Below are positions 20,736 through 42,776 of a stretch of 64,000 nt of DNA, piece after piece. The position numbers and the translations under genes were made by a program. Origin of the DNA: Actinomycetes bacterium (GTDB lineage Bacteria; Actinomycetota; Thermoleophilia; BMS3ABIN01); contig JAJYLW010000009.1 in assembly GCA_021787475.1 (NCBI GenBank), positions 7,722-71,721 of the forward strand, written 5' to 3'. The notes below the pieces were generated by a model, which saw only the letters and a program-made list of their open reading frames with translations, was not told the DNA's origin and searched no databases. Numbering within the stretch: the stretch's first letter is position 1; every line of letters starts with the position of its first letter.

Positions 20736-20812
20736 GCGGCCACCTCAGTTCACGAAAATAAGTTCCCGCATGTGTGCGGGTTTACACCTCATCACCAAAG
20801 CCGGAACCAATA

Positions 20813-20818: not shown

Positions 20819-20824
20819 ATTTTC

Positions 20825-25827: not shown

Positions 25828-25836
25828 TCATTCGCA

Positions 25837-25850
25837 CCTCTGAAAATGCC
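25837..25850. repeat. target-site duplication, left copy (CCTCTGAAAATGCC)
   Basis: 14 bp identical to 40535-40548, each directly abutting a terminus of the inverted repeats. Confidence 0.8.
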
Positions 25851-26307: not shown

Positions 26308-26355
26308 ATCCAAACCGCAATTTACTGTCCCAGGAAACCCGACCACATCTTTCCT

Positions 26356-26754: not shown

Positions 26755-26757
26755 CAG

Positions 26758-27426
26758 CTAAGATAAAGAAATCAAGCGCTGAACTAAAATAGGAGTGATA
26801 AGTCCCTCGATGAGACCTGCAATTATAAAAAGGAAAATTATTAAAGGAAATACTTTCAGGCTATGGTTATAAATTTCTTTTATCTTCTCTTTGAATGCTA
26901 CGTTATTCCTTTTCATCAAAATTGTCGGCGCTCTAAGGGTTAAACTTGTTGTCAGTATAATTGCTGGTACTTCAAATAATAGATGAGGCAAAGCTAATGG
27001 AAACAGATAACCATGAACACCAACACCCGAAATTAATCCCCAATTTACCCCCAGATCAAAGCCAATAATACTTGCTTTAAATAAACCCACTAAGGCAGTA
27101 ATTGGAATTGGTGAAGTCAACACTAAGAAAAAACTTGTTCCGACATTCTTAGAAATCGTCATATATGTTTGGGGCTGTTTATCCCAAGAATCATAAAAGC
27201 TACTAAGAATATTTCTGGTATCTTCCCTGGTTTGGTTTTGTTTATTATCAATATCATATGGAATATTGCCGGGCGTGTTAATTAAATTAATTGCTTCTTT
27301 TTGATTATTAATATTACTTATTCTGGCTTGAAGCTGACCGCTTAAGTATCCAAGAAATATGGTAACGAAAAATAAGATCCCAGCAATTATGATTAATATT
27401 CTATCTTGTTTGATAGCATGAATCAT
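26758..27426 (-). CDS. SpoIIM/DUF95-like integral membrane protein
   Basis: 222 aa with multiple TM helices. The C-terminal GVHGYLFPLALPHLLFEVPAIILT pattern resembles the DUF95/SpoIIM family. Confidence 0.4.
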   Translation of the reverse strand: MIHAIKQDRILIIIAGILFFVTIFLGYLSGQLQARISNINNQKEAINLINTPGNIPYDIDNKQNQTREDTRNILSSFYDSWDKQPQTYMTISKNVGTSFFLVLTSPIPITALVGLFKASIIGFDLGVNWGLISGVGVHGYLFPLALPHLLFEVPAIILTTSLTLRAPTILMKRNNVAFKEKIKEIYNHSLKVFPLIIFLFIIAGLIEGLITPILVQRLISLS

Positions 27427-27442
27427 TGTTAACTTCTAATTA

Positions 27443-27709
27443 TTACGAGAGTGAACTCAATAAATATTCTATCTGACTAGGGAGATCTCTTAATTCTTGC
27501 TGTACGGCTTTTTTATCCGCGTCAGGCAAAGCGCCGTAAGTATAATCATATATATCTTTTCCAATCTTATAAGAATTTTGAAGAGCATCCGGATTTGGGT
27601 AACATTGTTCTTCTTGTTCGGCGCATGCGGCCCTGTAATAATTTTCCTCCGGGAGGCATAACGGCGATTCTTCGCCTTCATTCGTCGGATTTTGACTCTG
27701 TTGATTCAC
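27443..27709 (-). CDS. small acidic Cys-containing hypothetical protein
   Basis: 88-aa ORF co-oriented with the neighbouring AT-rich genes. Confidence 0.3.
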   Translation of the reverse strand: MNQQSQNPTNEGEESPLCLPEENYYRAACAEQEEQCYPNPDALQNSYKIGKDIYDYTYGALPDADKKAVQQELRDLPSQIEYLLSSLS

Positions 27710-27814
27710 AGACCACTTCTAAGTCTATGATTCTACGAACTTAAGAACTAATAAAACCTGGCAAGCCATGGACTCAGAACATGAATGTGGTGGTGCTTAA
27801 ACTAGCATTCCCGG

Positions 27815-30778
27815 TCAGCCGATGACAACTGCGGTAAGGGCCTTCCGCAGCTTGTTCACTGTGGCTGCCCCAGGCTCAACTTTACCTGCCAGAAAACGCA
27901 GCACGGTACTGTGTGAAAGTCCTGCCGCCCGGGCCACTCTCCGCACTCCGTGCTTCCTGCAGACAATCGCCACCCGCTCTTGTAGCTCAGTGAGACTGCC
28001 GCCCGCTGCCCCGTACCTGATCTGCGCCTCTGGGTCCTCGCCGGTCAGTGAGCGTTCCTCCCAGCGATTGGCTTCCTTACCAATATATTGAATGCCGTTT
28101 ACGTCCGGCACCCGAATATGACGGCGGCGAAGCAAACCCGCCTCTGTGTAATCGCCGCCAATAAACTTCGTCTCCGGGTGCAGGTGGTAACGGACAAGAG
28201 CCTGTAGGTAAGTCTTGAGAAGCTCAGGAGTGACAGTCTCGCCAGTGTCCCGGTCAAAGCAATGCCTCACTGCAACTGCCGGGTCGGGATCAAAAGGTGA
28301 GACAGCCCGGGGCGATTGGGCCGTTTGCTGCCGCTTGTGCTTGCCGCCTCGGGAATCGAGTTCTACACAATTAAGCTGGGCGGCACTCCTGGCCTGATAG
28401 GCATTAAGAAAACCGAACGGGCGCACCTGCTGAGCATATGGCTTGCCCTTGTTGAAAGTGTCAAACCAGTGAAGAAGCCTCGGGCAGGTGGCCGCATAAC
28501 GGCTAAGCGCTACCGCGTCAAAGCCTGGCAGGCAGTCCAATTCGACTATCTGAAGGTGACCGGCAAGCGCTGCTTGGACAATTAGATACCAGAGATCATA
28601 CTGCCAGCGCTGAGTGCCAATCTCTAAGAGCGCCAGCCGGGGGGCTGGGACCCGGTCCGGCGCTTTCGCTTCCGGGTAGGGCGGCTGCAGGTGACCGAGG
28701 CCGTGGGCCGATGCCTTGCGCAGGACGGGCCTGCCGTCCGCGCCGATGTTAAAGAGAGCGTACCGCTTATCAGAGACTGCAAAGCAGTAAAGCGCTTCCG
28801 GCAGCCGGCCATCGAGGCTATAGTTCGCATCTTCCAGCTTGAACAGCTCGTCACCTGAGGTGTAGGGGTTAAGCTGTTCAAACCAGCCGCGTACGCGCTT
28901 AGTCCGCTTGTAAAACTCCTCCTCAGGCATACCCTGCGGGCAGGCCAGGGCCATGCTGTCGGTATCGCAAAAAGCCCAGCCGAGGCCCTCCTGCTCGGCC
29001 AAGGCCTCAACGACTCCCAGCATCAGCCGCGCCGCTCCCGTGGTCAGGGTGGCGAGCAATGGGTGAAAGTAACGGCCCGGCTCCTCAATGCTCGCCAGCT
29101 TCGCGGTACGCGGAGTCTCATCGCCGCCAAAGTAGACCTGTTCTTTCTGGCGGGCATAATCTTGCACATTCAGCTCGACGAAGATACCGTAGCAGCTGGA
29201 GTTGGCAACGATCTTCATCGCCAGCTGTTCGCTCGCCAGTCGTTCACGTTCTGATTCATTATTGCAGCTGCGCATCTGCTGCTTGACGCTGGAGCGCAGC
29301 TCAATCAATTTGAGGTAAAAATCATCCTTAGCGGGATCGATGCGGTAGTCAGGATTTCCCAAGATGTCAATCAGCTTTAGGCCCGGCTGCTGGCCCCGGG
29401 GGGTAAAGGCCAGCGCCCTGAGAATCTTCGGCGTCTTCCCAGTAAGCAGCTTGGAAACAAAAACGTCGGCCAGGGTGAACCAGAGCGGCTCTTTACTGGT
29501 CAGGTAATTAAGGCCGATCGAGTAGGCGGGGCTGCTATCGTCGTAGGCGCTACGCACCGGCAGGAGGTCAGCGTCTGCTTCGACCCGGGCGAGCACAGCC
29601 AGCTTGGCCCACGTCTCGGGGCGGGCCAGGTCGCTGAGCTTAAGGTTATCAACTATTGCTTGGGTCTCGGCGGTTGCTTCTCTCCAGTGGGCGCCGGTGG
29701 CGGTGACAAAGCGCCAGAGCCCCATGAGAACCGAGACAGTCGGGTACATCGAGAGAAAGTCGCAGTAGGCAACCTGAGAGACAACCCGCCTGAGGTGCAC
29801 TTCGGAGCGGCCGCCAAAGTAGCTTGCCATGATGATGCCTATAAGTTCGGGTGGTACGTCGGGCTGCAACTCGCGCCATGGTTTGACCCCCATCTCGCGC
29901 AGGCAGGCCTTGCCAATCGACGCCTCGCTCAGGATTGCCGAGACCGGTGTGGCGGCAAGCTTGAAACCCTCGTAACGGGCGGCGAGGAGCTGGGAGCACT
30001 CGAAGGTCACCTCAACGTCATTGCGCAGGTAGCCGAGGTAATTAGCGGTTAGCTCCCGGCCGTGTTCGGCCTCGGTCTTTTGATGTTTTGTGCCCAGCAA
30101 ACGGGCCAGTGAGGCCAGCGAATGCGAGCTGCCGGTCAGGGCAGCCGCCAGCGAGCGCACATCTGAAAAGAAGCCGCGCCTGGGGGGCCGCCGGTGGCGA
30201 CGCCGTCTCATGGAGCGGGCACTCCGCTGGCCGCCTGGGGCGGCGAAGTCGATCAGAGATGCGGTCCGCGACAGATGCTTGATGCGAACAGGCGGCCAGT
30301 TCTCGCTTAATGTCAGGGAGAAACCACCGCCCATCTTTTTACCCTTGGCTGGTCCATGCTTTATTGCCAGCCGGGAGAGGTCAAAAGGGAGATTGAAGCC
30401 GATAATCAGCGCATTTAACAGGTATGCCTGGCGGTAAAATATCGCCTCAATGAACTCGCTGACTGTTCTTAGCTTGAGGTCGTGGCGGCGGGCATAGCCC
30501 AGCAGGCGCCGGCGCTCTTTACTATTCAAGGCTTTTGGGTCAAAAAAGAGACCTTCCTCAACTAGTTCTTTCTTTTTGCGCAACTGGTAGCAACCTACCC
30601 GCAGCCGCTGCTCGGCGGTAGTCGTTGTCTCAGTATCGAATATGAGTGAGTAATCAGAAGGACCCAAGGGGGCGCTTCCCTCGTTGTTTGTAGTGGTCAT
30701 TTGACTGCCATTTCCGGTTTGTGGCACTGCGTAGGCACGCAGGGCGATTGGCTGCTCTATAGGTGCTGGCACTTTCAT
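27815..30778 (-). CDS. polB: family B DNA polymerase (casposon PolB) with 3'-5' exonuclease domain and C-terminal HTH
   Basis: Exo I IFDTETT, Exo II NLPFD, Exo III YLRNDVEV. Pol motif A DFLSMYPT, motif B KIVANSSCYG, motif C FCDTDSMA. C-terminal HTH (GLSHSTVLRFLAG). The start MKVPAP at 30778 overlaps the HNH gene stop (ATGA). Confidence 0.85.
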   Translation of the reverse strand: MKVPAPIEQPIALRAYAVPQTGNGSQMTTTNNEGSAPLGPSDYSLIFDTETTTTAEQRLRVGCYQLRKKKELVEEGLFFDPKALNSKERRRLLGYARRHDLKLRTVSEFIEAIFYRQAYLLNALIIGFNLPFDLSRLAIKHGPAKGKKMGGGFSLTLSENWPPVRIKHLSRTASLIDFAAPGGQRSARSMRRRRHRRPPRRGFFSDVRSLAAALTGSSHSLASLARLLGTKHQKTEAEHGRELTANYLGYLRNDVEVTFECSQLLAARYEGFKLAATPVSAILSEASIGKACLREMGVKPWRELQPDVPPELIGIIMASYFGGRSEVHLRRVVSQVAYCDFLSMYPTVSVLMGLWRFVTATGAHWREATAETQAIVDNLKLSDLARPETWAKLAVLARVEADADLLPVRSAYDDSSPAYSIGLNYLTSKEPLWFTLADVFVSKLLTGKTPKILRALAFTPRGQQPGLKLIDILGNPDYRIDPAKDDFYLKLIELRSSVKQQMRSCNNESERERLASEQLAMKIVANSSCYGIFVELNVQDYARQKEQVYFGGDETPRTAKLASIEEPGRYFHPLLATLTTGAARLMLGVVEALAEQEGLGWAFCDTDSMALACPQGMPEEEFYKRTKRVRGWFEQLNPYTSGDELFKLEDANYSLDGRLPEALYCFAVSDKRYALFNIGADGRPVLRKASAHGLGHLQPPYPEAKAPDRVPAPRLALLEIGTQRWQYDLWYLIVQAALAGHLQIVELDCLPGFDAVALSRYAATCPRLLHWFDTFNKGKPYAQQVRPFGFLNAYQARSAAQLNCVELDSRGGKHKRQQTAQSPRAVSPFDPDPAVAVRHCFDRDTGETVTPELLKTYLQALVRYHLHPETKFIGGDYTEAGLLRRRHIRVPDVNGIQYIGKEANRWEERSLTGEDPEAQIRYGAAGGSLTELQERVAIVCRKHGVRRVARAAGLSHSTVLRFLAGKVEPGAATVNKLRKALTAVVIG

Positions 30779-31287
30779 AGTTCGGCCCCCCGGCCAGTGA
30801 GCATGTTGGGAAGGCCCAGCGCCTCCCACCAGCGCGGCCCGTGCCGCTTGCGCATGCACTTTTCGAGTGCCTCAAGCCAGGCAATCACCGGAGCAAGAAG
30901 ACGCTCGGCGATCATCACCAGCCAGTCGCGGGCGCTGCGCAGGTTGGCGGCGGCCCGGAGCGCTGGACTACCCTCGGGGTTTCGGCGCGTCTCTTCGGGC
31001 CAGTCAACCTTGTAGTCATCCATAACGCGGTGGTCATTCGCGGCCATCGTAACCTCCATCTTTGGATTGTTTTTACGGCCGGCGGGGTGGTGGCGCTCTA
31101 CAGTGGAGCGCCCCTGCTGAGCGCACCTGTGCTCATAGCACTTGATATTGAGGTACGCGCCGGTCAGAGCCCGCCAATCACTCTCGCCGCAGCCGGGCAC
31201 ACTGCAGTGTGGACTCCGGGTGCCGAGGCGCTCGAAGGCATCTTCGGCGCGGGCCTCGGCGTTTGAGGGAAGTAACCTCTTTGTCAT
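30775..31287 (-). CDS. HNH endonuclease
   Basis: Cys-rich C..C ... ERHHPAGRKNNP ... pattern typical of HNH nucleases. Translationally coupled to polB. Confidence 0.6.
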   Translation of the reverse strand: MTKRLLPSNAEARAEDAFERLGTRSPHCSVPGCGESDWRALTGAYLNIKCYEHRCAQQGRSTVERHHPAGRKNNPKMEVTMAANDHRVMDDYKVDWPEETRRNPEGSPALRAAANLRSARDWLVMIAERLLAPVIAWLEALEKCMRKRHGPRWWEALGLPNMLTGRGAEL

Positions 31288-31306
31288 CGCTATCTCCTTT
31301 TTGTTG

Positions 31307-31888
31307 TTAAGCTACGATTTTGTAGACGTCCTGGAAGGATTCTGTCTGGGTTTCGGTAAGCCGGTAAAGGACGTTTTCGCGTGTCTCAAAAGGGTGGAAC
31401 TGGCCGCCGGCGTCCATCACCCCCTGGCCGGCGAACTCTTTCAGGGGAGCGGGGTCGTTACTGTCGAGAAACTGTCCCACTGCCGCCATATAGCGGCCTG
31501 CTAGTTGGGCCGAGTCGTAGTCGGGCAGAATGACGATCAGTTCACGCCCACGCGAGTAGATAAGCATCTGGCGCCGGCGAGCATCGGGGCCGACCTTCCA
31601 GCGGGCTTGCTCCTTGCGCCCTACGCCGGTGCGCACCAGGTAAGAGCGCAGTCGCTCAGGGGCGACGTGCAGGCGCCTGGCGGCGGCTGAAAGCGACTCG
31701 TCCTCGCGCACCTGCTTAAGCCCTTCTTCAAGCTCAGGGTCCCACGGGCGCGCTTTGATGATCTGGGACGTGTAGGGTTCGTGATGACGAGGATGACCGC
31801 GGGCCTGGGAGCGCGAGAGTCCCTTCGCTTGCCCGCGTTTGATCCGGCGGGCATACTCGCCTTTGTAGTCGCGCTTGCGGCGGGCCAT
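31307..31888 (-). CDS. hypothetical basic protein
   Basis: 193 aa with an Arg/Lys-rich N-terminus, in the polB operon. Confidence 0.4.
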   Translation of the reverse strand: MARRKRDYKGEYARRIKRGQAKGLSRSQARGHPRHHEPYTSQIIKARPWDPELEEGLKQVREDESLSAAARRLHVAPERLRSYLVRTGVGRKEQARWKVGPDARRRQMLIYSRGRELIVILPDYDSAQLAGRYMAAVGQFLDSNDPAPLKEFAGQGVMDAGGQFHPFETRENVLYRLTETQTESFQDVYKIVA

Positions 31889-31942
31889 CAGGACTCACCG
31901 CCCGCACCTTGCGTTGACAAGCACTGACCATTGCGATAGTAG

Positions 31943-32776
31943 TTACTCAAGACGAACCTCCCGCTTATAGGTGGTGGAGTTTGTCGATTGGGCCTGTGCG
32001 GAGGTGGTGCTCCGCACGGGCCGTTTTTTATTGCTCGGGCTGCCTCGCTGGCTGGCCTGCCCGCCGCGCTTGGGATGAGGCTGTGGTTGCCGTGAAAGTC
32101 GCCAGCGCCAGCTAGGATCGAGCACGTAGGCGTAGCGGTGTTTGGGCGGGCTTTTGCGCGCGACGATGGCCAAACCGGTGCGCCTAAGGTGAGCGACCGA
32201 GCCCGTGCCGAACCTGCCGGAAGCACTGCGGGGATGGATGCGAACGCCGTTAAGCTCGAAGTAGCGCTCCGGCTCGGTGGCACCGAGGTAAAGCCAGCCC
32301 GCGGCCTGGTAGATTGTCCCCACATGACCGGCGGCCGGGTCGGCGAAGCTCACGAGCAGCTTGTAGCTGCCCTCTCGGCGCAGCTTGCGCAGGATCAGTG
32401 AGAGCACCCGGCTTTCGTTATTGGGCGGCAGACCGTCGGCCATCCAGAAGCGGGCCAGGGTAGCGACGTCGGCGGGACGTGCCCCGGCCAGCAGGTGGTG
32501 GGCCTGGCGGGCACCGGCCGTGAAGACGCAGGCGCCCACCAGCTCGGAGCCGAGGTTCACGGTGTAGCAGCAGCGAACGACACCCGGCATTGAGTGCAGG
32601 TAGTGACACTTAACGACGAGGCTGCGCACGGCTGCGGCAGGCACGCGCTTAACCCGCAGGCTGCGTAATATGGAGCGGCCGGTCGGGACTCGAACCCGCG
32701 CCTCCTCGCTGGTGGGGCGAGGCGTCCTGCCATTAGACGACGGCCGCAGGGGATGCGCTGGGGGTGCAGGCTTCAC
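31943..32776 (-). CDS. putative GNAT-fold Mom-like DNA-modification protein (tentative)
   Basis: Motif pattern HYLHSMPG...ELVGACVF...LVSFADPAAGHVGTIYQAAGWLYLG recalls Mom-like acyltransferases. This is from memory and no search was run. Confidence 0.3.
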   Translation of the reverse strand: MKPAPPAHPLRPSSNGRTPRPTSEEARVRVPTGRSILRSLRVKRVPAAAVRSLVVKCHYLHSMPGVVRCCYTVNLGSELVGACVFTAGARQAHHLLAGARPADVATLARFWMADGLPPNNESRVLSLILRKLRREGSYKLLVSFADPAAGHVGTIYQAAGWLYLGATEPERYFELNGVRIHPRSASGRFGTGSVAHLRRTGLAIVARKSPPKHRYAYVLDPSWRWRLSRQPQPHPKRGGQASQRGSPSNKKRPVRSTTSAQAQSTNSTTYKREVRLE

Positions 32777-33618
32777 GCCTCGGTCACCTCACAGCCGAGT
32801 TCTTCGGCCACGGCCAAAACGTTGCGCGATCTGGTGGCAAGACGCTCTGCCAGCTCGGCGGCTTCTTTGCCTCCGAACACAGCTCTTAAGGCCTCGGCTG
32901 CAGTGGAAGCGGTTTCCCAGCCCTCGAAGCTCTCGCCGTCATCCAGGGCTACGGCAAGGCGCTTAAAGTAGTGCGCCAGGCGGCGCTGCTCGCGGCGCTC
33001 TTTGGCCGTAAACAAACGGTCAACAAGGCTCTCCTGCTCGGCGGGTAGCTCACCGCGCGGGCGAGCAGACGGCGGCGTAAAGGCAACACCGCTGCGACTG
33101 ACGCGCTGCTCGGTTACCGGGATTGTTGCCTTGACTTCCAGTTCTTGCCGCAAACCTGCCACGGTCGTCGGCGAGAGGGCCGTTAGCCGGGCAACCTCCA
33201 GATTGGAGACGGCGGCGTTGTCCTTAAGCAGGCGCTCGGCTTCGCCGCGCCGATCGGCGAGCGTCAGCGGCCGGCCGTGAACGGTATTGAGGGCAAAGGC
33301 CAAAGCTCGCAGGTCGTCGCCTGCGGGTAGTTCGTGAACCGCGACAGGGACTTTTTCGAGGCTGAGGTTTTGCGCGGCTGCGTACCGGTGGAAGCCATCG
33401 ACAAGCACATAACCGCCACGCTTAACGACGATAAGAGGCGGCCAAGCCTTGGGGTTTTCCTCAAGGGCTTGGACGTGACCATAGTCCAGTCCTGCGATGC
33501 GTGGCTGGAGGGTGGGATCGACGAGAATGCGCCCCAGGGGCAGGTCAATGGTAGTGGCAATCTGTGTCTGCATATCATTCACACCTCTTCTGCAATTGGG
33601 TTGTATTTCAATTTTCAT
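32773..33618 (-). CDS. ParB-like nuclease (ParB/Srx N-terminal domain) protein
   Basis: The N-terminal domain carries the ParB/sulfiredoxin catalytic-loop signature (LIVVKRGGYVLVDGFHRYAAA). First gene of the minus-strand operon ending with polB. Confidence 0.55.
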   Translation of the reverse strand: MKIEIQPNCRRGVNDMQTQIATTIDLPLGRILVDPTLQPRIAGLDYGHVQALEENPKAWPPLIVVKRGGYVLVDGFHRYAAAQNLSLEKVPVAVHELPAGDDLRALAFALNTVHGRPLTLADRRGEAERLLKDNAAVSNLEVARLTALSPTTVAGLRQELEVKATIPVTEQRVSRSGVAFTPPSARPRGELPAEQESLVDRLFTAKERREQRRLAHYFKRLAVALDDGESFEGWETASTAAEALRAVFGGKEAAELAERLATRSRNVLAVAEELGCEVTEA

Positions 33619-33705
33619 GGCTATGTTTTGCCATACCGGCGAGCGAATGCCTAGAGTCCCGAAGAAGTCGATACGGTTCGCGATAGGGTGTAAAATGAAT
33701 CAATA

Positions 33706-34896
33706 ATGAATGAATACGTGACAGATGAGGATGGTCATACAAAAAGGGAGCTGCTTGAACTGGGCCGCCAGCTTGGGGCCAGCGAGAAGCAGTTCGACCG
33801 TTGGCGTCGCGCACAGCTCCTACCGCCCCCAATCAGTCATCGCTCGCTTGGCCGCGGCAAGGGGTCCGTGTCGATCTATCCGCCTGGCACGTCAAAGCAA
33901 CTACGTCGCCTGTGCGAGCTTCACTGCGCGCCGTCGCTAATCAAGAAGGAGCGGCGTCTCCTGTTCCTTGCCTGGAAGCTCTGGTGGGAGGGTTACGATA
34001 TTCCGGCTTTGCGCGTGCGCGAGTTTCTTGCCAAGCACGTCGTGAACAGCTTCGACAGCGACGTAGAAGCAGCCCGCGCGATGAGCCCCGAGCAACGCCA
34101 GGTGACCGTTCACGAGTTGGCAACTAAACCGCTCGGCCGGCATCCGGGGCCGCTTGGCAAGGCACGCGGCCATTTACGGGGCAACATGCGCGACTTCCTC
34201 GCACTCCTCTTCACGATGGTCGATGGGAACGTAATCACCAGCGACCCAGAGAGCTTGCGGTTGCTGGAAAAGGCGAGCGGCTTGGAACGGGGACGCACAG
34301 ATACCTGGTGTGGTCAGCCTTTGCTCACCGATGAGAAGAATCACATCCCAGACACGATCGTTGCTGCTCTAATGCCCCTGCTGGATGGATCGTTGACACA
34401 ACGTGTCGAGCAGATGAGCGATGCCGAGCTTTGCGAGGCACGCCAAACCGCGCAGCGATGGTGGAATGGTGTCACCGTGATGGCTCGCTTTGGCCGAGAC
34501 GCGAGGGGCAAGGGCGGGTTTGGTCTGGGCGACTTTCTCTACGCGCCTAGCAATCCTCGCGAACAGGCAGCTTGGTGCCTCATGTTCGGCATGTTAAACG
34601 AAGCCGCGACCAACAACAGCGCGGTGGCGGACATCTTTCGCACCTTCTTCACCGCGCTTGAGACTTTTGCCGCGAACTATCCATTGGTGGAGGCGGGCCG
34701 CGAGGTCGAGCCGTTCCGTGAACTGCTCAGCCCTGCGCGAATCGAACAGGTGACTGCCGATCCCGACAAGATGCCTGAACATCTCCGCGAAATTCGCCGG
34801 ACAAGGTTCCACAAGCCGGATGCAGCAGAGGCATTTACAAGAGCGATAGTGGCAGCCCAGAAGCGGCTGGATGATAAGACGAAGGGGAACTTCTAA
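33706..34896 (+). CDS. hypothetical protein (possible N-terminal HTH)
   Basis: 396-aa ORF divergent from the ParB-like gene and immediately upstream of cas1. Confidence 0.4.
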   Translation: MNEYVTDEDGHTKRELLELGRQLGASEKQFDRWRRAQLLPPPISHRSLGRGKGSVSIYPPGTSKQLRRLCELHCAPSLIKKERRLLFLAWKLWWEGYDIPALRVREFLAKHVVNSFDSDVEAARAMSPEQRQVTVHELATKPLGRHPGPLGKARGHLRGNMRDFLALLFTMVDGNVITSDPESLRLLEKASGLERGRTDTWCGQPLLTDEKNHIPDTIVAALMPLLDGSLTQRVEQMSDAELCEARQTAQRWWNGVTVMARFGRDARGKGGFGLGDFLYAPSNPREQAAWCLMFGMLNEAATNNSAVADIFRTFFTALETFAANYPLVEAGREVEPFRELLSPARIEQVTADPDKMPEHLREIRRTRFHKPDAAEAFTRAIVAAQKRLDDKTKGNF

Positions 34897-34959
34897 CAAC
34901 AACAAACGCCCCCGCGACGCAGCCACGTCCGGGGGCATGGCACACGGAGGTAAGTCCGC

Positions 34960-36351
34960 ATGCAGAAACATGATACACCCACCGCCGAACGTCTCGACGG
35001 CCGCCGCAGCGTCGAACGCGATCCCCGCATCTGTCAGAACTGCGGTTGTGAGTTTATCCCCAAGCGTCAGACCAAAGGACTCTTCTGTTCTGTCCGTTGC
35101 TACCGCCTCTGGTGGGGTCAAAACGGTCAGGCAGAAGCGTCAAAGAAGGGACTCGCCAAGCTAGAAGAGCTGCAAGCGGCCGGTAAAGACCCCCGTGCCA
35201 GCCAGCAAGCAACCTGGAAGCGGCGCATGGCTTTTCGCAACTCGGCCCTGACGATGGCTGAAGATGAACACGAAACCGACGATTTCCTGTGGGCTGAGCG
35301 AGGCCAATACTGGCAAGAACAGGTTGAACCCAAAGCTAAGAAAGTAATTTCGTACCGTCGCCATGAGCGAAAGCCCCTCATTCTTAACGGCCACGGCCTG
35401 CGAATGCATGTAAATTATGGCAGCCTCGTTGTCAGGCACGGCTTTACACACTACCCGCAGGCAGCGCGTGAGCAGAGGTTCTTTCCAGGCGATCCCAAAC
35501 TTCCGAGCCGCATCATTCTTCTTTCTACAAATGGATCACTCTCGCTTGACGTGGTCCGCTGGCTTTCCGAGCAGCGCGTGTCACTTGTGATGCTGGACTA
35601 CCGGGGGCGGGTTGTAAGCGTCCTTGGTACTGAGACTACGTCTGCCGATCTTGCCCTACGGCGGGCACAGATCGAAGCTATAACCAACGGACGCGGGCTT
35701 GTGCTTGCTCGCTCGCTGATTGAGCAAAAACTTGCGGCTTCGATTACAACCCTGGAGACTCTGCCAGCATCGGAAGTAAAGGAATCCGCGATTAAACGCA
35801 TTACGGCTTTGCTTAAACAGCTACAGGCAAAACCGCCCCAATCAATCGATGACCTGCGTCATCTTGAAGCTTGGGCAGCGATCCCTTATTTTGGTGCATG
35901 GCGGGCGGTTGAGCTTCGTTGGAAGGGCACGGCAAGGAAACCGATCCCTCCAGAATGGAGACGCATTGGCGTGCGCCAAGACTTCCTCCGGCGGACGAAC
36001 CGTCATGCGCACCACCCGGTAAACACATTGCTTAACTATGGCTACGCCTTGCTCGAAAGTCAGGTGCGCATTGCGCTTGCTGAGGTCGGCCTCGATCCAA
36101 CGATCGGCTACCTGCATGTCTGTCAGGCGGGGCGGGATTCTTTTATCTACGATCTTATGGAGCCCTATCGGCCGGTAGTGGACCGCGACGTGCTTGGGTT
36201 TGTCAGGTCGCAGACCTTTACGCCCAGGGACTTCGTGATCGATAAAAAGGGGGTGTGCCGGCTTCATCCAGAGCTGGCACGGCTGGTGGCGTCGCTCGCC
36301 TCTGAAGCGGTCGCTTCGCTGCAGCTTGAGATAGGCACGTTGAGGGAATAG
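34960..36351 (+). CDS. cas1: Cas1-family integrase (casposase) with N-terminal zinc ribbon
   Basis: Cas1 hallmarks HPVNTLLNYGYALLESQVRIALAEVGLDPTIGYLH and RDSFIYDLMEPYRPVVD (catalytic His and Glu). N-terminal CQNCGC...CSVRCY ribbon. SD GGAGG is 9 nt upstream. No cas2 or CRISPR repeats are present. Confidence 0.85.
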   Translation: MQKHDTPTAERLDGRRSVERDPRICQNCGCEFIPKRQTKGLFCSVRCYRLWWGQNGQAEASKKGLAKLEELQAAGKDPRASQQATWKRRMAFRNSALTMAEDEHETDDFLWAERGQYWQEQVEPKAKKVISYRRHERKPLILNGHGLRMHVNYGSLVVRHGFTHYPQAAREQRFFPGDPKLPSRIILLSTNGSLSLDVVRWLSEQRVSLVMLDYRGRVVSVLGTETTSADLALRRAQIEAITNGRGLVLARSLIEQKLAASITTLETLPASEVKESAIKRITALLKQLQAKPPQSIDDLRHLEAWAAIPYFGAWRAVELRWKGTARKPIPPEWRRIGVRQDFLRRTNRHAHHPVNTLLNYGYALLESQVRIALAEVGLDPTIGYLHVCQAGRDSFIYDLMEPYRPVVDRDVLGFVRSQTFTPRDFVIDKKGVCRLHPELARLVASLASEAVASLQLEIGTLRE

Positions 36352-36644
36352 CAGCTTGCAACTCGCACTGCAGCCCAAAGAGATCTGCAATCCTAACTTG
36401 ATGAGTGCTGCTACCGGGTTCAACCCGCGAAAACAAAGAATCGATCTCTTCATCAGGGTTTGAACCGTTGCGCCCGTTTCACAGAGCCGTTAACATATGC
36501 ACAATTAACTGTTTCCTAATGGAATTGGATGATCAGTTAAACAATTTATCAAGAATTGTTTTTAATTGGCAGTGATATATTTGCAGGTAAGCGACTCCCG
36601 GCTCCAATGATGTGAAGTCCGTCAAACTCGAATGAGAGAACTAG

Positions 36645-37202
36645 ATGGCCAAAACAAAAAGAAGACTCTTCCTCGCCAGCGCTACAATTCTTGGCGTGGG
36701 CGTTGGAGCCGTGTTCGGGTCCATCGCCTTCTCCGCCCATCATGATGCTGGGAAAGGTCCAGTCATCTCTGACCAAACCGACATGCTTAGCACTAAAATA
36801 ACGCCAGCGAGCGCCACTGGCTACCTGACAAGTGTGGCAGGTAAATCCTGGGTCATATTCCTGGACCCCGCTGGCGGAACCGTTGACGCCACCAGTTACT
36901 CTAACGCCGACACACTTGGCAACGGTGGAGAGGTAAAGGTGAACGTCGAACATGGAACTGTCTCCGGCTACGGCGAGACAGTTGATTTCATTGGTATCAA
37001 CGTGGCAGGGCTTAATTCCTGCCCATGTCGAGCGCTCACCGACGGATCAAACTTGCAAATCCTGATTCCAACCAAAAACGAACTGCTGGAGACGCTCACT
37101 TTCTACCCGTCAAGCGTCGCCGCTTACAACAGCGCAGTCTCAGGGTTGAACGCGAGAGCTGCACGGGTCAACCAAGACCGCCAGCATGGAGCCAATGATT
37201 AA
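36645..37202 (+). CDS. secreted protein with twin-arginine (Tat) signal
   Basis: KRRLFLASATILGVGVGA N-terminus. 185 aa in the AT-rich segment. Confidence 0.45.
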   Translation: MAKTKRRLFLASATILGVGVGAVFGSIAFSAHHDAGKGPVISDQTDMLSTKITPASATGYLTSVAGKSWVIFLDPAGGTVDATSYSNADTLGNGGEVKVNVEHGTVSGYGETVDFIGINVAGLNSCPCRALTDGSNLQILIPTKNELLETLTFYPSSVAAYNSAVSGLNARAARVNQDRQHGAND

Positions 37203-37346
37203 CAAAATCATTATATGAGGGAGTTTCACTCTCATGATTTCAACCTCTATTCTTTAGTGTCAGCTATTCAGGCTAGAACAAGGTATATACATATCCGGAG
37301 CTAGTTGATATTATCTTTATTCGTTTTTTTTGTCTAGTGCCGGGCG

Positions 37347-38429
37347 GTGATTACATGGATCATCAGTTGCTTGCCGGTTGCCTTCAGCCAATGCATAACT
37401 CTCAACTTATCTTTATTCCTTTCCGCGGAGGTTTCAGCCAAAATGTCTATTTTTGATGGATTTCGTGGAGCGGATTATTGGATTAAGAGGGGCAAGGAAG
37501 CAGCTAACAATTACAACTTCGAAGCTGCAAACGCTTGTTTTAAACGAGTCCTTCAAAAAGAACCCGAAAACCTCTCGGCTTTATTTAAGAGTGCTTCTTG
37601 TCACATTGAGAATAACCAACTTGGGCAAGCGCTTGAGCTAATCGATAAATGCATCAAACTTGATCCCGCGAATGTCCTTTATAAACAGAAGAAAGGTAAG
37701 GTTCTTGAAGCCCAAGAGAACTACGTGGATGCCATCAAATGGTATGAAACAAACATCGCCGAGAAACCAGAAATTTTACAAGTGTGGTGGGGACATAAGG
37801 CTTTATGCCTGAAGAAATCTGGGAAGCAAGCTGAAGCTGTAGAATGGCTAAATGAATGTTTGGACGAGGATCCAAATTTTGACTTTGGATACTATCTTAT
37901 TGCGAATTTCCTTCATGATGAAGAAAAGTATGATGAGGCGGTGAGTTTCTATGAGAGAGCCGTAAGCCTGCATGGTGAAGCCGAGGGACCATCATTGCTC
38001 AATATGGCCGATTGCTTTGTTAATCTTGACAAAGATAATAAGGCAATCTCTTGCTTGGACATCGTTATTGATAAAAATCCTGAGCATCCAGCAGCATGGC
38101 GTGAAAAAGCCTTCATGTTAGAGAAACTTGGACACTCTGAAGAAGCTATCACTTGCTTTGACAAATTAATTTCCCTTACACCGAAATCGGCCAGCTCCGG
38201 CCCAATGGGCATCGGATGGTATCTGTGCCACAAAGGAGATTGCCTTCAGAAACTGGGGCTTCTAAGTCAGGCCCACGATTGCTTTATCGAAGCATCCAGA
38301 ATTGATTTCATTTTAGTCCAGGCTCATATTGCCTCCAAGTCGGAAGCAGAGCTGTCAGAAATAGGTTTTGCACAGACTCCTATAACTAACCTGAGTGAAA
38401 ATCAGTTCAGATACCTGACGGGAAGGTAA
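37347..38429 (+). CDS. TPR-repeat protein
   Basis: Multiple tetratricopeptide repeats. The real start is probably MSIFDGF at about 37443. Confidence 0.6.
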   Translation: MITWIISCLPVAFSQCITLNLSLFLSAEVSAKMSIFDGFRGADYWIKRGKEAANNYNFEAANACFKRVLQKEPENLSALFKSASCHIENNQLGQALELIDKCIKLDPANVLYKQKKGKVLEAQENYVDAIKWYETNIAEKPEILQVWWGHKALCLKKSGKQAEAVEWLNECLDEDPNFDFGYYLIANFLHDEEKYDEAVSFYERAVSLHGEAEGPSLLNMADCFVNLDKDNKAISCLDIVIDKNPEHPAAWREKAFMLEKLGHSEEAITCFDKLISLTPKSASSGPMGIGWYLCHKGDCLQKLGLLSQAHDCFIEASRIDFILVQAHIASKSEAELSEIGFAQTPITNLSENQFRYLTGR

Positions 38430-38631
38430 ACATGGGTCTTTTTAGTAAATTCTTAAACCAACCAAACAGAGACAAATCTGAAGAATTCAACCTTAGAGCA
38501 TGCCAGCTAGAAGGTGATGATAAAATGACATTAGGCCAGGATCATTAGCAAGCGGAGATAACAAAGGTGGCATTAGTCTTTGGGACGTGAAAGATCTTTT
38601 CTAGGGTTGCTACCAATGAGGTCGTGATCAA

Positions 38632-38934
38632 ATGAAAAGGCTGATTTACATTTTGTTAACCTTTTTGCAGCTTCCGGCGGTTTTAATGGTCGGGGCATTA
38701 AATATCGTTGAAGGTCTATTCGTGGCGAGCGGATGTATCGGTTTTTTGGTTATAACCATTACCTTAGGCGTCGTCGGGGGAATTATTTTCGTTTTCGGGA
38801 TGGTTTTGTTGTTTGGCTTGGTCAGAGCGGTCATGATTCCATACGTCAATCTTCTTGAAAGGGTAAAAATGAATCTCAAAAGTAGCCCAAAAATAAAAAA
38901 TATGAATGAGTATCTATTTGAGGATGAGCGGTAA
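38632..38934 (+). CDS. small membrane protein (2 TM)
   Basis: 100-aa hydrophobic ORF. Confidence 0.35.
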   Translation: MKRLIYILLTFLQLPAVLMVGALNIVEGLFVASGCIGFLVITITLGVVGGIIFVFGMVLLFGLVRAVMIPYVNLLERVKMNLKSSPKIKNMNEYLFEDER

Positions 38935-39000
38935 TCAATCATCGTAATCTATGCCGTTTGGCCCAAAATCAGGTTTTCTAAATGGCTTAAAATATTAACC

Positions 39001-39043
39001 TCAGAGTTCGAATACCGTTGCACCGCCCCCATCATCATCAGCT
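39001..39043. repeat. degenerate copy of a tRNA/tmRNA-like 3' end (remnant junction)
   Basis: CTCAGAGTTCGAATACCGTTGCACCGCCCCCATCATCATCAGC is near-identical to 42367-42410. A degenerate R-type TIR terminus (ACAGGTGGTCCACAAGTTGTACATCCCTAT) lies at 39278-39312. Confidence 0.5.
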
Positions 39044-39394
39044 CTTCACCAAGACCCGAGGGTGGCCGCAGAGAGTAGACAGCTATCAATCCGATGACCC
39101 CTATCACGAGCAGAATGATGTCCTTCTTCATGATTTCCCTCCGGTCATGTGATTAAATACGTAACAATTACAAATTGCACATGCGTGTTATTAAGGACAT
39201 AAAAAATACTCCTGAGTGGATATCAAAGTCAATCAATCGGACTGCGACACCCTGGCGGGGTAGCTCAAAGGGAGGGTTACAGGTGGTCCACAAGTTGTAC
39301 ATCCCTATTTTGCCATCAAAAAACCTGTTATTAAGATATTTTTTGAAAGCAATATCGTAAACACTAGGGGCTTCGCACTTTTGGGAAAAAAAAA

Positions 39395-39979
39395 TTATTC
39401 CGAAGCAAAGAAGATATTGTCTAGATCGATGTACTTGTCAACCAATATTGGTAGTCGCTTACTGAGGCCAATTGAAAATGCCGCTAAAAATATGTTCTTT
39501 CCGTTTCGTATCACCTCCTCAATTATAGGAATATAGTCGCCATCGCCCGTAATCAAATATGCTGAATCAAAGTTATCGTTGTATAAATGGTGCAGAATAT
39601 CGATTGTCAGCTTTATATCGACGCCTTTTGCCTTATCTGTCTTTCTAACCTTTTTAAAAATACAAGGTGTCAAATGATTTGGTTTAAACGAGTGTGAATA
39701 TTTGTCAAAATTAAGCTGTTTTATTTCTCTCTCTACATGTTCTATGCGGCTATTATCTCCACTTAAGGATGTATACAGAGTGGCTCTAATTATTTCGTGA
39801 CCCTCATGTGAAATAGCTTCTTTTTTCCAAACATACACATCGTGCTCATGAACAACGTCTGTCTTAGGATTAGATCCTTTATTTAACAGGTGCTGATATC
39901 TGAGCACCATATTTTCACCATCTATAAAAATCATCATTCGCCCTGCGTTAGGGGCAATAGGTCCTCGGTGTAGCATCAT
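39395..39979 (-). CDS. NYN-domain (LabA-like PIN-fold) ribonuclease
   Basis: IFIDGENM...DIKLTIDIL...YLITGDGDYIPIIEE pattern of NYN/LabA domains. Confidence 0.6.
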   Translation of the reverse strand: MMLHRGPIAPNAGRMMIFIDGENMVLRYQHLLNKGSNPKTDVVHEHDVYVWKKEAISHEGHEIIRATLYTSLSGDNSRIEHVEREIKQLNFDKYSHSFKPNHLTPCIFKKVRKTDKAKGVDIKLTIDILHHLYNDNFDSAYLITGDGDYIPIIEEVIRNGKNIFLAAFSIGLSKRLPILVDKYIDLDNIFFASE

Positions 39980-40134
39980 TTTGTTCTAGTCTCCTTACAT
40001 TAAGAGTTTCCGTTAAAGGTCCAGCAGGGCAAAAAATCAGACCAGCGCCTCGCCGAAGATATTTTTAAAAAAAAATTGTGGCGGTTTTTCACTGAAAGAA
40101 AAGATTAAACGAAAATTCCACTCGGTGGCAACGT

Positions 40135-40534
40135 CCTGGTCGTGAGCGGGTAGCTCCAATCACCTTACAAAATGTAATGATGTCAAACAAGACTAGCTGC
40201 AACGTCCTGAACATGAACGGGGTGGCTCCAATGGGGTCAAGATTGGTCCTGTGCATTGCCTCCCAGCCAAATGCTCTCCCAGCCAACCTACTCCCTACTT
40301 CTAGAAGATTCTGTACCCGAATCAGCCTGTGTATCAACTAATAACGAAGACCTCTTTAGTCAACCACATGAACCAAAAACCCCGATAGCGGGATTCAGGC
40401 ACCTCGTATCACTTATCAAGTATTTTAGTTGATAAATAAGTTGTGGTTAGCCAGGACCAGAAGGCGATCGGAAATTGATATTTCTTTGTAACAGTTGTCA
40501 CAGGTGGTCCACGGAATGCACATCCCTATACCCC
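40135..40534. repeat. right terminal inverted repeat (TIR-R)
   Basis: Reverse complement of TIR-L. Ends ...GCACATCCCTATACCCC and is followed by the TSD. Confidence 0.8.
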
Positions 40535-40548
40535 CCTCTGAAAATGCC
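40535..40548. repeat. target-site duplication, right copy (CCTCTGAAAATGCC)
   Basis: Identical to 25837-25850. Confidence 0.8.
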
Positions 40549-40711
40549 TTGAACAAGGCATTTTCCAATGCCCGATATCGTAACAAGCCGGCGGGAATCG
40601 AACTTTCGTTCCCGCAACTCTCATAAAAACGCGAAGCCAAGCCTTATTTTTGGTTGGTGGAATGCTGGCAAATCCGCGGAAGCATTCATAAGATGCCTGC
40701 ATGAAGATATA

Positions 40712-41059
40712 ATGGCTTTCAAAGGGAGCTTCATGGGGAATCTGACAATAAATGAGAAAAAGGCCTTAACTGATTTTCGAAATGTCCTTGTGGCGGACTT
40801 CGGGGCGCTGGACGTTCGTCTTTTCGGATCTCGCGCGCGCGGAGAGGGCGACGAAGAATCGGATCTGGATGTCTTCATCGTCATTCCCAAAATCGACTGG
40901 GCGCTGGAGAAAAAAATTTACGGCCTTTCTTTTGATATCAGTCTGGAACGCGGTGTATTAATTTCTCCGATTCTATACTCTCAGAAGGATATCGAAAATC
41001 CATCCATAATGATTTCGCCTCTTTATAAGACGGTTCAGCGGGAGGGCATGAAGATTTGA
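40712..41059 (+). CDS. minimal nucleotidyltransferase (MntA-like antitoxin)
   Basis: GSRARGEGDEESDLDVFIV, the GSx10DxD NTase motif. Overlaps the downstream HEPN gene by 4 bp. Confidence 0.7.
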   Translation: MAFKGSFMGNLTINEKKALTDFRNVLVADFGALDVRLFGSRARGEGDEESDLDVFIVIPKIDWALEKKIYGLSFDISLERGVLISPILYSQKDIENPSIMISPLYKTVQREGMKI

Positions 41060-41448
41060 ATGATGACCTGAAGAGCCTTGTGGACTACCGGCTTGATGAG
41101 GCCCGCGAATCGATAGAAGAAGCCGTTCTTTTGCTTGAGGGTGGTAAATCACGTGGTGCTTTAAACCGGGCTTATTATGCGATGTTTTATGCGACTCTGG
41201 CGATGCTTGCAATTAAGGAGCTGGGTGCATCAAAGCATTCCGGAGTAATTCGCCTGTTCCACGAACATTACGTGCAGGATGGAACATTCGATAAGGAAAT
41301 TGCACGCTCGCTGAGCATCGCCTTCGATCTAAGGAATAAATCAGATTATCGCGAGCTCACGTCACCTTCCAGCGATGAAGCGCAGGACACTTTGGCAGCG
41401 GCGATCAAGTTTGTGGCCGAGGCAGAGCGGGTCATCGAAATCCCATAA
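41056..41448 (+). CDS. HEPN-domain protein (HepT-like toxin partner)
   Basis: 130-aa all-helical HEPN-like sequence with a TTG start coupled to the NTase gene. The Rx4-6H motif is not obvious, so it may be inactive. Confidence 0.55.
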   Translation: MNDDLKSLVDYRLDEARESIEEAVLLLEGGKSRGALNRAYYAMFYATLAMLAIKELGASKHSGVIRLFHEHYVQDGTFDKEIARSLSIAFDLRNKSDYRELTSPSSDEAQDTLAAAIKFVAEAERVIEIP

Positions 41449-41683
41449 ACGGAATAATCCAGAAGTGCGGAAGGCACTAAGAGCCTGATAAATGGCGAAT
41501 CACAAGATAAAACACAGACGTTATTACTCAAGTTGCGCTCCCTGCAAACCTGATGAATTCTTTCGTACACGTAAGAATAAATACGGCGAAAGATACCGTG
41601 GGTACAAGCAATGGCACACAAGCGAAAAGGACAACTAACCCCCGCGCCCCAATGGTGGAAGCACCTCCGCGATTGGAAGCGGG

Positions 41684-42058
41684 TTGCCAATAAGCGGGAG
41701 CGCAAGGCGGAAAAAGAAGAGATCAAAAAGGATTGAGCCTCCGCGAATTTCTGGAGCCTCCATTACAAATATGAAAAAGAAGATTCCCCTCGACACAAAA
41801 CTTTCCGTCAAGCTGACTGTCCGTGAGCGTAATATTATTCTGGATGAAACTTTTTGCGATCCTCGTTTGGTAAGGCTAGCTTCAGTCGATGGCAAGCATG
41901 TGCTATTTGAATGGTCGCTGGATGAAATAGAAGATGTTCAGGGCTTCGTTGCCGCTGAGGCGAACCATACAGACAACAAACAGCTTGAGACGACGCTAGA
42001 TCGAATATTTCTAAAACTGCAAGTGTACTTGGATAGTTATGATGACCGGGAAGAATGA
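41684..42058 (+). CDS. hypothetical protein
   Basis: 124-aa ORF. The likely start is MKKKIPLD at about 41771. Confidence 0.3.
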   Translation: MPISGSARRKKKRSKRIEPPRISGASITNMKKKIPLDTKLSVKLTVRERNIILDETFCDPRLVRLASVDGKHVLFEWSLDEIEDVQGFVAAEANHTDNKQLETTLDRIFLKLQVYLDSYDDREE

Positions 42059-42308
42059 CAAGAACGAGAAAGTAGTGCCATTCCAACCGCAAGGGCCATT
42101 TAGCCTTGAGGCCAAGAAGCGATGGAACAAAATACCAAAGTGGGCGCAGTCAAGAATATTGGAACATGTCTGGTGTGTTGAATGCCGCGTCGGCGTTTCC
42201 ATCATTCTGGAAACCGCCGAAATGCAGGACGATGATCTTCTCCTTCGAGGAAAATGCAAAACCTGTGGGCATGAAGTCTGCCGCCTCGTTGAACCCGAGG
42301 CTGATTGA
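42039..42308 (+). CDS. small zinc-ribbon protein (CxxC...CxxC)
   Basis: 89 aa with CVEC...CKTCGHEVC. Confidence 0.35.
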   Translation: MMTGKNDKNEKVVPFQPQGPFSLEAKKRWNKIPKWAQSRILEHVWCVECRVGVSIILETAEMQDDDLLLRGKCKTCGHEVCRLVEPEAD

Positions 42309-42366
42309 ACCCCTAATCAATCTGACACGAAGGGATTACCCGCAACAACCGCCTCAAAATATTAAG

Positions 42367-42447
42367 CTCAAAGTTCGAATACCGTTGCACCGCCTCCACC
42401 ATCATTCGCACCTCTGAAAATGCCGGGGTATAGGGATGTGCATTCCG
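42367..42447. repeat. remnant junction: tRNA-like 3' end + TSD-like 14-mer + solo TIR terminus
   Basis: CGCCTCCACCATCATTCGCACCTCTGAAAATGCCGGGGTATAGGGATGTGCA duplicates 25817-25868 (52/52). The continuation ...TTCCGGCGACCAC resembles the inner sequence of TIR-R rather than TIR-L. Confidence 0.6.
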
Positions 42448-42507
42448 GCGACCACTTTTGACCCCCCCACCCATCATCCACTTATCAAGCATTTCTGTCA
42501 TAGTTTT

Positions 42508-42577
42508 GGCTAGCCCCCTGGATTTGATACCGACAAATAGTAACTTTCAATGTGGTATCAAATCCAGGGGGCTAGCC
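42508..42577. repeat. perfect 24-bp-stem inverted repeat (hairpin) with 22-nt loop
   Basis: GGCTAGCCCCCTGGATTTGATACC-N22-GGTATCAAATCCAGGGGGCTAGCC. Confidence 0.8.
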
Positions 42578-42700
42578 AGCCTTCCTTTCCCTCGAAATTT
42601 GCTTGGCATGTTCGGAATAGTGTTTGGAAAGAGCAATTGGAGGAATTGCCGAGCGGAAATCAGACAGGAATAAATAGCAAAATTTGCAGATAAAAAGTAG

Positions 42701-42776
42701 TGGTGGGCGATGGCGGATTTGAACCACCGACCCCCTGCTTGTAAGGCAGGTGCTCTCCCGCTGAGCTAATCGCCCA
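42701..42776 (-). tRNA. tRNA-Val (anticodon TAC)
   Basis: Cloverleaf GGGCGATTAGCTCAGCGGGAGAGCACCTGCCTTACAAGCAGG...GGTTCAAATCC...CGCCCACCA with encoded CCA. Confidence 0.85.

Follow-up and report, generated by a model that had tools for sequence, protein, structure and literature searches.

How does the DNA behind a single RNA gene come to hold several copies of the same transposon end, one of them preceded by a copy of the end of the gene itself? The question is raised by a stretch of 64,000 nucleotides from an Actinomycetes bacterium of the lineage Thermoleophilia (GenBank assembly GCA_021787475.1, contig JAJYLW010000009.1, positions 7,722 to 71,721), called the window below and numbered from its first letter, in which the tmRNA gene ssrA is followed by a casposon, and the casposon by further copies of its terminus and of the ssrA 3' end. 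The CRISPR adaptation machinery has been proposed to descend from casposons, and to our knowledge little is known of the bacterial ones. The observation of the extra copies is itself secure: the five sequences that a first-pass annotation had listed are all present, at or within a few bases of where it had placed them and far beyond chance. They are footprints of at least three rounds of mobile-DNA insertion beside ssrA, by the casposon and by a toxin-antitoxin cassette. Our main conclusion is that the region downstream of ssrA is probably a hot spot for these two kinds of mobile DNA, the extra copies being their layered junctions.

The argument starts from the gene and from the element inserted behind it:

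25471 to 25827, + strand: ssrA (tmRNA gene), intact (ARAGORN; Rfam RF00023, 183 bits, full length)
25816 to 25850, + strand: copy 1 of a 35-bp block, made of the last 12 nt of ssrA, the 9-nt spacer TCATTCGCA and the 14-bp target CCTCTGAAAATGCC, the last at 25837 to 25850
25851 to 40534, strand not assigned: the present casposon (terminal inverted repeats, PolB, Cas1, subterminal inverted repeat)
40535 to 40548, + strand: copy 2 of the 14-bp target, an exact match and the target-site duplication of the present casposon

Downstream of ssrA the spacer, the target and the 14.7-kb element follow in this order. The element is a casposon with a perfect target-site duplication, since it unites PolB, Cas1, terminal inverted repeats and a target-site duplication. 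The repeats (left, 25851-25897; right, 40488-40534) are 47 nt long and 89% complementary, and the 14 bp of the target stand unchanged at 25837-25850 and 40535-40548. The casposase is encoded by a cas1 gene at 34960-36351 (+ strand, 463 aa; PF01867, E=1.7e-48, 165.6 bits). PolB, at 27815-30859 (- strand, 1014 aa), is a weak match to PF00136, just above the cut-off (23.4 bits vs 23), and scores 20.2 bits against PF03175, below the cut-off of that family. The segment 40495-40534, taken in the first-pass annotation for an additional inverted copy of the terminus, is actually the right terminal inverted repeat of this intact element and lies directly before the second target copy.

The subterminal inverted repeat of the element (26121-26308 / 40134-40321) is 188 nt long and 94% identical, and is thus better kept than the terminal ones (89%). 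It contains an internal 23-nt direct repeat (40128-40150 / 40199-40221) and is partly conserved in the relic of a sister genome (L053 13110-13247, see below); it holds no consistent open reading frame (ORF) and has no match in Rfam.

The insertion site recurs far downstream, at the following places:

42390 to 42424, + strand: copy 2 of the 35-bp block, identical to copy 1 and including the third 14-bp target (42411-42424)
42425 to 42506, + strand: solo left-type terminus L' (42425-42462) with the remnant of an old casposon, orthologous to a relic next to ssrA in the sister genome, minus ~340 nt

The exact duplicate announced earlier near 42391-42442 proves to be 53 nt long: 25816-25868 and 42390-42442 are 100% identical, similarity extending to 73 nt at 90%, and the shared sequence consists of the last 12 nt of ssrA, the 9-nt spacer, the target and 18 nt of terminus. 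With 0.04 occurrences expected in 64 kb, the 18-mer terminus is present three times; the 14-mer target has exactly three copies in the window, all exact, and neither a fourth terminus nor a fourth target copy was found within these 64 kb. The third terminus faces right and adjoins an intact target, with neither a partner end nor an element body, as expected of a solo terminus. Its bases 19-23 match the right terminal inverted repeat and not the left one (42425-42447 is the reverse complement of 40512-40534, 23/23), so the annotated continuation of the duplicate into sequence of the right type holds as well.

What this terminus is emerges from the sister genome L053/L054, in which the genes for malic enzyme, fumarase and a response regulator likewise lie upstream and the tmRNA gene encodes the same tag peptide. 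There, 23 nt after ssrA, comes GGGGTATAGGGATGTGCATTCC, then ~380 nt of left arm, then a match to window 42450-42506 at 91%. In a global alignment, window 42390-42531 equals the sister ssrA junction minus ~340 nt, the deletion being on the window side. Because the same relic, cut at the same point, lies directly after ssrA in the sister, the comparison shows that it already stood there in the common ancestor of the window genome and L053/L054. The comparison with sister genomes, which the first-pass annotation had proposed as a way to order the insertions, thus places the relic before the divergence. In the window the relic is now 16.6 kb from ssrA, though the last 12 nt of the gene, the spacer and the target still stand directly before it. 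That the host is an actinobacterium of the Thermoleophilia type is borne out by homologues of the transketolase and fumarase at 83-85% in metagenome-assembled genomes, several of them named Thermoleophilia.

Between the present casposon and the relic lies a second, quite different insert:

40549 to 42389, + strand: a 1.84-kb AT-rich cassette (gene content by Pfam and sequence comparison)
40733 to 41059, within the cassette: nucleotidyltransferase
41056 to 41448, within the cassette: HEPN protein, paired with the nucleotidyltransferase
41492 to 41736, within the cassette: small basic ORFs
41771 to 42058, within the cassette: an ORF
42039 to 42308, within the cassette: CxxC protein
42352 to 42389, within the cassette: right-end segment X
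40540 to 40609, + strand: right half of the boundary unit, with a terminator-like hairpin GAAAATGCC/GGCATTTTC (40540-40565) followed by an inverted box GCCGGCGGGAATCGAAC that resembles the T-arm of tmRNA (sequence comparison and unit model)

The GC content of the cassette region is 46-49%, against about 60-64% in the host. Homologues of its CxxC protein at 81-85% are located on contigs L055 and L056, and in L056 the segment 3508-3887, which aligns to window 42039-42424 (84%), runs unbroken into 3874-3976, which corresponds to window 40535-40638 (84%). As this alignment is continuous, the two ends of the 1.84-kb segment are contiguous elsewhere, and the order 'X, block, hairpin' exists uninterrupted. 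It defines a unit of ~135 nt, composed of segment X, the last 12 nt of ssrA, a variable 9-nt spacer, the target, the second hairpin arm and the inverted T-arm-like box; the 14-bp target is itself the first arm of the unit's 9-bp hairpin. A sequence model of the unit matches two copies in L055, two in L056 and three in the 3.65-kb contig L060:

L060, 665 to 798, 2557 to 2689 and 3509 to 3638: unit copies (unit model)
L056, 3814 to 3947 and 6085 to 6219: unit copies (unit model)
L055, 7466 to 7599 and 9737 to 9871: unit copies (unit model)

In these contigs the units separate cassettes of 1-2.3 kb that encode Phd/ParE, RelE/HTH, an RNase T-like protein, an ABC1 kinase and the small CxxC protein. 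The arrays contain no casposon termini, Cas1 or PolB, and no integrase was found in the parts of these loci that were examined. The first-pass annotation had rightly seen a toxin-antitoxin pair and a small protein (the CxxC protein, which it called a Zn-ribbon protein) between 40549 and 42308, but its suggestion that they belong to an older, eroded element does not hold for a casposon: homologous cassettes occur without termini, Cas1 or PolB, and are bounded by the ~135-nt unit rather than by terminal inverted repeats.

The junctions of the cassette can be read as those of an integrated element. The identical 35-bp blocks at 25816-25850 and 42390-42424 form an att-like direct repeat that contains the ssrA 3' end, and ssrA itself is full length. 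The two ends of the cassette are joined across the repeat, as in an attP-type junction, at L056 3508-3976 and also in L060. An unoccupied site, the attB state, is seen in the sister L053/L054, where ssrA leads into spacer, target and old relic without any cassette. The arms are combined as follows:

ssrA with the old terminus: sister L053/L054
X with the hairpin: L056 and L060
ssrA with the hairpin: the window, after removing the casposon and one target copy
X with the old terminus: the window, 42352 to 42462

All four combinations expected from one reciprocal exchange are therefore observed. Tandem insertion of a casposon duplicates the 14-mer only, so that another process must have copied the 21 nt upstream of it; we infer from these junctions that it was recombination within the shared 35-bp block that brought the cassette in.

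Related casposons suggest what would make this block a target. The terminus lies 23-24 nt past the 3' end of an RNA gene in the window, in L053, in L021, in L002 (tRNA-Ile) and in L028 (tRNA-Gly), over these intervals:

Window, 25828 to 25850
L053, 12846 to 12868
L021, 847 to 870
L002, 14373 to 14395
L028, 17159 to 17181

The duplicated sequences of 14-15 bp are unrelated between these sites while the offset stays the same, which points to a ruler that starts at the tRNA-like end and not to recognition of the duplicated bases. The ssrA 3' end acts as the 'leader' for casposon insertion. The minimal target of the Aciduliprofundum boonei casposase consists of the duplicated segment and 18 bp upstream (PMC5137440); the 35-bp block supplies 21 bp upstream of the 14-bp target and would probably, if the same requirement holds, be a complete casposon target. 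In L021 a casposon whose Cas1 is 70% identical is inserted at the tmRNA gene; its orientation is the same and its duplication measures 15 bp. At 3.35 kb downstream of its right end come a right terminus of another subtype, a decayed 14-nt target and a further left terminus, so that L021 18790-18851 is a true tail-to-head casposon junction. The window has no such array, as the sequence from 40549 onward is hairpin and cassette, with no terminus. The proposal of successive integrations at one site survives in part: the copies are scars of repeated use of one type of site, with the L021 junction and the solo left end of L053/L054 as parallels, but the 53-bp duplicate requires recombination within the block of ssrA end, spacer and target.

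The relic segment of L021 that separates the intact casposon from the next terminus (16331-17887) encodes a TIR-domain protein. Together with the NYN gene (see below) and the nucleotidyltransferase/HEPN pair of the window, it suggests that such hot spots collect defence-type genes.

A further layer of junctions lies inside the present casposon, close to its right end:

38984 to 39047, + strand: copy A, putative left half of a fossil unit, with segment X, the decayed last 12 nt of ssrA and TCAT (unit model R1, 45 bits, E=5e-14)
39276 to 39312, + strand: R'', a decayed right-type terminus, presumably once the right end of this element or that of an older casposon (repeat comparison)
39313 to 39382, + strand: putative fossil flank of R'', with a decayed 14-bp target (39313-39326), a decayed hairpin and a ATATCGTAA box, forming the right half of copy A's unit (alignment and model R1)
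39395 to 39979, - strand: NYN-domain gene (Pfam PF01936, E=5e-17), apparently captured flank, with the fossil right end on one side and the present right arm on the other

The two T-arm-like copies of the first-pass annotation, A and B, are real: aligned over 62 nt, 38986-39047 and 42353-42414 show 85% identity, which rises to 92% in the central 50 nt (E=1e-12), and copy A fits positions 2-65 of model R1. So is the decayed terminus of the right type, 39276-39308 being 85% complementary to the left terminal inverted repeat over 33 nt. R'' is followed by CCATCAAAAAACCT GTTATTAAGATATTTTTT ... ATATCGTAAAC. This sequence lines up in register with what borders the working right end, namely target, hairpin and box. 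The local alignment of this flank scores 32, against 16.8 +/- 3.2 for shuffled sequences; this score is reached by 3 of 3000 shuffles and by 18 of 2791 random sites in the same AT-rich region. The halves are in the correct order and orientation, ~270 nt apart, and the gap between them ends in a right-type terminus. Copy A would then be one half of an older unit and R'' with its flank the other, the unit having been split by an earlier casposon of which most has since disappeared. Most simply, an ancestor of the casposon would have taken up a right end further out, and the DNA in between would have become part of the element. Lying with its former flank inside the present element, the fossil terminus records the growth of this element and is not the scar of a neighbouring dead copy.

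Copies A and B were also considered as fragments of a tRNA or of tmRNA and dismissed, as Rfam does not recognise them at E<=1; their T-loop-like GTTCGAAT has no T-stem and is 5 nt too far from the CCA end. The minus-strand ORFs at 38949-39131 and 42313-42501, which share the A/B repeat, were rejected as spurious, the second one crossing the terminus and the target. Copy A is preceded by a 100-aa ORF and copy B by the CxxC protein; no homology was found between the two.

The following course of events would account for the locus. Casposons of this family insert, as the related sites show, 23-24 nt beyond the 3' end of an RNA gene (tmRNA or tRNA) and duplicate 14-15 bp. On the evidence of the sister, an old casposon occupied the site by ssrA before the two lineages diverged, and decayed to the truncated left end now at 42425-42506. 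The anatomy of the junctions then suggests that the toxin-antitoxin cassette, whose own site would be the ~135-nt unit of X, block, hairpin and inverted T-arm box, recombined with the chromosome within the shared 35-bp block. Such an exchange would leave 'ssrA, block, hairpin' by the gene and 'X, block, old relic' 1.9 kb downstream, and a complete casposon target would have been duplicated. The present casposon sits in the ssrA-proximal target, where its duplication is perfect; the repeat is 53 bp long instead of 35 because the terminal 18 nt of this casposon equal those of the relic. Cassette and casposon might have come in either order, as the product would be the same if a cassette circle had brought the casposon with it. 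Like events may have occurred earlier in the history of the casposon, copy A and R'' being halves of one split unit that is now internal: the element would have lost or bypassed its earlier right end and taken one ~1.2 kb further out, swallowing the NYN gene as cargo.

Several points weigh against this reconstruction. The 35-bp block is the same in both copies, but the spacer and target of the sister differ at ~6 of 23 positions, which calls for a recent event or for gene conversion. No tyrosine or serine recombinase domain was detected in any ORF of 40549-42389 (Pfam, PHROGs, PADLOC), nor beside the cassette, and this leaves room for plain homologous recombination. The examined parts of the array contigs L055, L056 and L060 contain no tmRNA gene, which makes the link of the arrays to ssrA a tentative one. 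A single assembly supports the junction at 42390. As to the fossil unit, 39309-39381 is weak when taken by itself against positions 57-132 of model R1 (7.9 bits, E=0.021, the fifth-best match in 7 kb), and no still earlier right end was found in 26000-38990, where scores of 14 are at chance level (10-16 for shuffles).

Could casposons alone have produced the pattern? If, as the first-pass annotation held, the locus had arisen by pure tandem insertion followed by decay, the sequence from 40549 to ~42700, toxin-antitoxin genes included, would be the remains of one or more older casposons pushed downstream by newer insertions. We consider this very unlikely, even though tandem arrays are documented (PMC4779613, PMC5137440), L021 has its right terminus, decayed target and left terminus downstream of an intact element, and 40549 to ~42700 is AT-rich, as casposon arms are. 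A tandem insertion copies the 14-bp target alone, and neither the last 12 nt of ssrA nor the spacer; at 40549 no left terminus is present and the sequence completes a hairpin with the target; the homologues of the cassette stand in arrays that have no Cas1, PolB or termini; and the contiguity of the cassette ends in L056 has already largely refuted the idea. Alternatively, the cassette and its 'X, block, hairpin' unit could have lain downstream of ssrA beforehand and served as a decoy, a second casposon having hit the target of the unit and left the terminus at 42425, so that no relic was ever displaced. The unit does hold the full 35-bp block and is therefore probably a complete target (the need for 18 bp upstream is known for A. 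boonei), and the fossil pair of copy A and R'' is also readable as an X-type unit insertion. Still, a decoy is unlikely, given that the relic shares its truncation point and the 45 nt that follow with the sister relic directly after ssrA, and that neither a right terminus, a second target copy nor a half hairpin comes after the relic in the window.

The layered junctions might finally be a product of the assembly or of a mixed population. The 53-bp repeat is shorter than a read, and misthreading through it, or mixed states, could hide a chromosome in which ssrA leads to the relic, exactly like the sister genome, next to a 16.6-kb circle of casposon and cassette. Two independent Logan contigs of run SRR13170411 match 34939-39018 and 38998-40163 at 100% and together reproduce 34939-40163 base for base; breaks between Logan contigs occur near 38998-39018 and at the 188-nt repeat, which would suit an artefact. 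Every type of junction, however, has its counterpart in other genomes, and the circle would still hold an 'X, block, left terminus' junction, so that the sequences themselves stay real; we regard an artefact as quite improbable. Insertion of two kinds of mobile DNA beside ssrA, with recombination in the shared block, thus remains our preferred account.

Genomic islands at the tmRNA gene are a familiar case, and carry a displaced copy of the 3' end of the gene. Here, as there, direct repeats with the ssrA 3' end flank the insert and the proximal gene is intact; unlike in those islands, only 12 nt of ssrA are repeated, the block runs 23 nt past the gene and no integrase is found. Other parallels come from archaea. 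Methanosarcina genomes contain tandem casposons, inactivated copies and solo terminal inverted repeats by the target motif (Krupovic et al. 2016, PMC4779613), and the present locus resembles them in repeated Cas1-mediated insertion at one site by a tRNA-type gene, in duplications of 14 bp and in solo repeats. It differs in its bacterial host (Thermoleophilia), in the use of a tmRNA gene and in having one fossil junction inside the active element; unlike those arrays, moreover, the window has no direct tail-to-head casposon junction, whereas L021 has one. In the same work, casposon MetMaz1FA1A3-C2 was found co-integrated with the tyrosine-integrase element MetMaz1FA1A3-E1 in a tRNA-Leu gene, the att site overlapping the target (PMC4779613, section 10). 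There too, two unrelated elements use the 3' end of a single RNA gene, with overlap between att repeat and target and with the casposon in the gene-proximal place. The second element of the window, unlike E1, measures 1.84 kb, carries no integrase or replication genes and belongs to a family of short cassettes with the ~135-nt unit, and its att-like repeat holds the whole casposon target instead of a partial overlap. The target also recalls leader-proximal integration by CRISPR Cas1-Cas2 and the A. boonei casposase (PMC5137440), in that it comprises a duplicated segment and an upstream 'leader', with the newest insertion nearest the leader in both the window and L021; unlike in A. boonei, a 9-nt spacer separates the RNA gene end from the duplicated segment, and the target is predicted from sequence.

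The kind of event is therefore already known from archaea, and its occurrence in a bacterium at a tmRNA gene is a modest extension, the bacterial (family 3) casposons known at the time being in intergenic regions (PMC4779613). The locus adds a tiny integrase-less partner cassette from a repeated family, a boundary unit that contains an entire casposon target, and a fossil junction within an active element. It provides sequence-level evidence for a targeting rule, leader-anchored insertion 23-24 nt past a tmRNA or tRNA gene, in which the most recent copy is the gene-proximal one; the fossil right junction points to a route by which flanking DNA is absorbed as cargo; and the target of the casposon is multiplied when a second mobile entity copies it. 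A broader proposition, which we put forward tentatively and hold to be possible but doubtful, is that Thermoleophilia carry undescribed short integrase-less cassettes, mostly toxin-antitoxin, arrayed by ~135-nt palindromic units that mimic the tmRNA 3' end and terminator and are each a complete casposon target, in a coupled cycle of cassette and transposon. If this were true, the spread of cassettes would multiply casposon landing sites, and casposons that switch ends would take cassettes as cargo.

The unit itself is a long imperfect palindrome. On the opposite strand, its right half (window 40539-40605, minus, vs 25804-25850) resembles the T-loop, acceptor end, spacer and target of the tmRNA gene; it matches GTTCGATTCCCGCCG at 15/15 positions. 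Its spacing is that of the true tmRNA, while 5 additional nt are present in the left half, X. Integron attC sites have RYYYAAC ... GTTRRRY boxes and are used by an IntI integrase. The unit was considered as such a site and rejected: its ends, AAAGTTCGAAT ... GGAATCGAACTTT, fit neither the consensus nor the box order, and no integrase is present in the loci examined. Searches for the unit in viral contigs, plasmids and phages found none, a scan of a viral sequence collection with the 18-nt casposon terminus gave no match, and exact-protein look-ups for the HEPN, nucleotidyltransferase and CxxC proteins returned no record.

Beyond the relic, the window continues with two features:

42507 to 42578, no strand: perfect palindrome with a 25-bp stem and a 22-nt loop, between the relic and tRNA-Val, role unassigned
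42701 to 42775, - strand: tRNA-Val, where synteny with sister L049 resumes exactly

The palindrome is unique in the window and in all fetched loci; its left arm is partly alignable to the sister sequence after the relic and may reflect a local inverted duplication. Synteny with L049 starts at the tRNA-Val gene (window 42701 / L049 9249 onward), and the examined 9 kb to the left of that start in L049 contain no ssrA. In sister L053 the relic is followed (13400-20846) by an inverted cas1 of 79% nucleotide identity and an IS1595 fragment, with no PolB in the part examined. The ssrA and tRNA-Val loci were apparently joined by a rearrangement at the old casposon.

The present casposon also contains a tRNA-like gene of its own (32674-32747, - strand), ~2 kb upstream of cas1, which scores 44 bits as a tRNA in Rfam and was missed by ARAGORN; it overlaps the start of a Mom-family ORF. 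Relatives have a tRNA-Val(tac) or tRNA-Gly(tcc) gene at the equivalent place of their casposons (L001 5043-5116, L026 5082-5155, L017 4021-4097 and L018 7740-7816).

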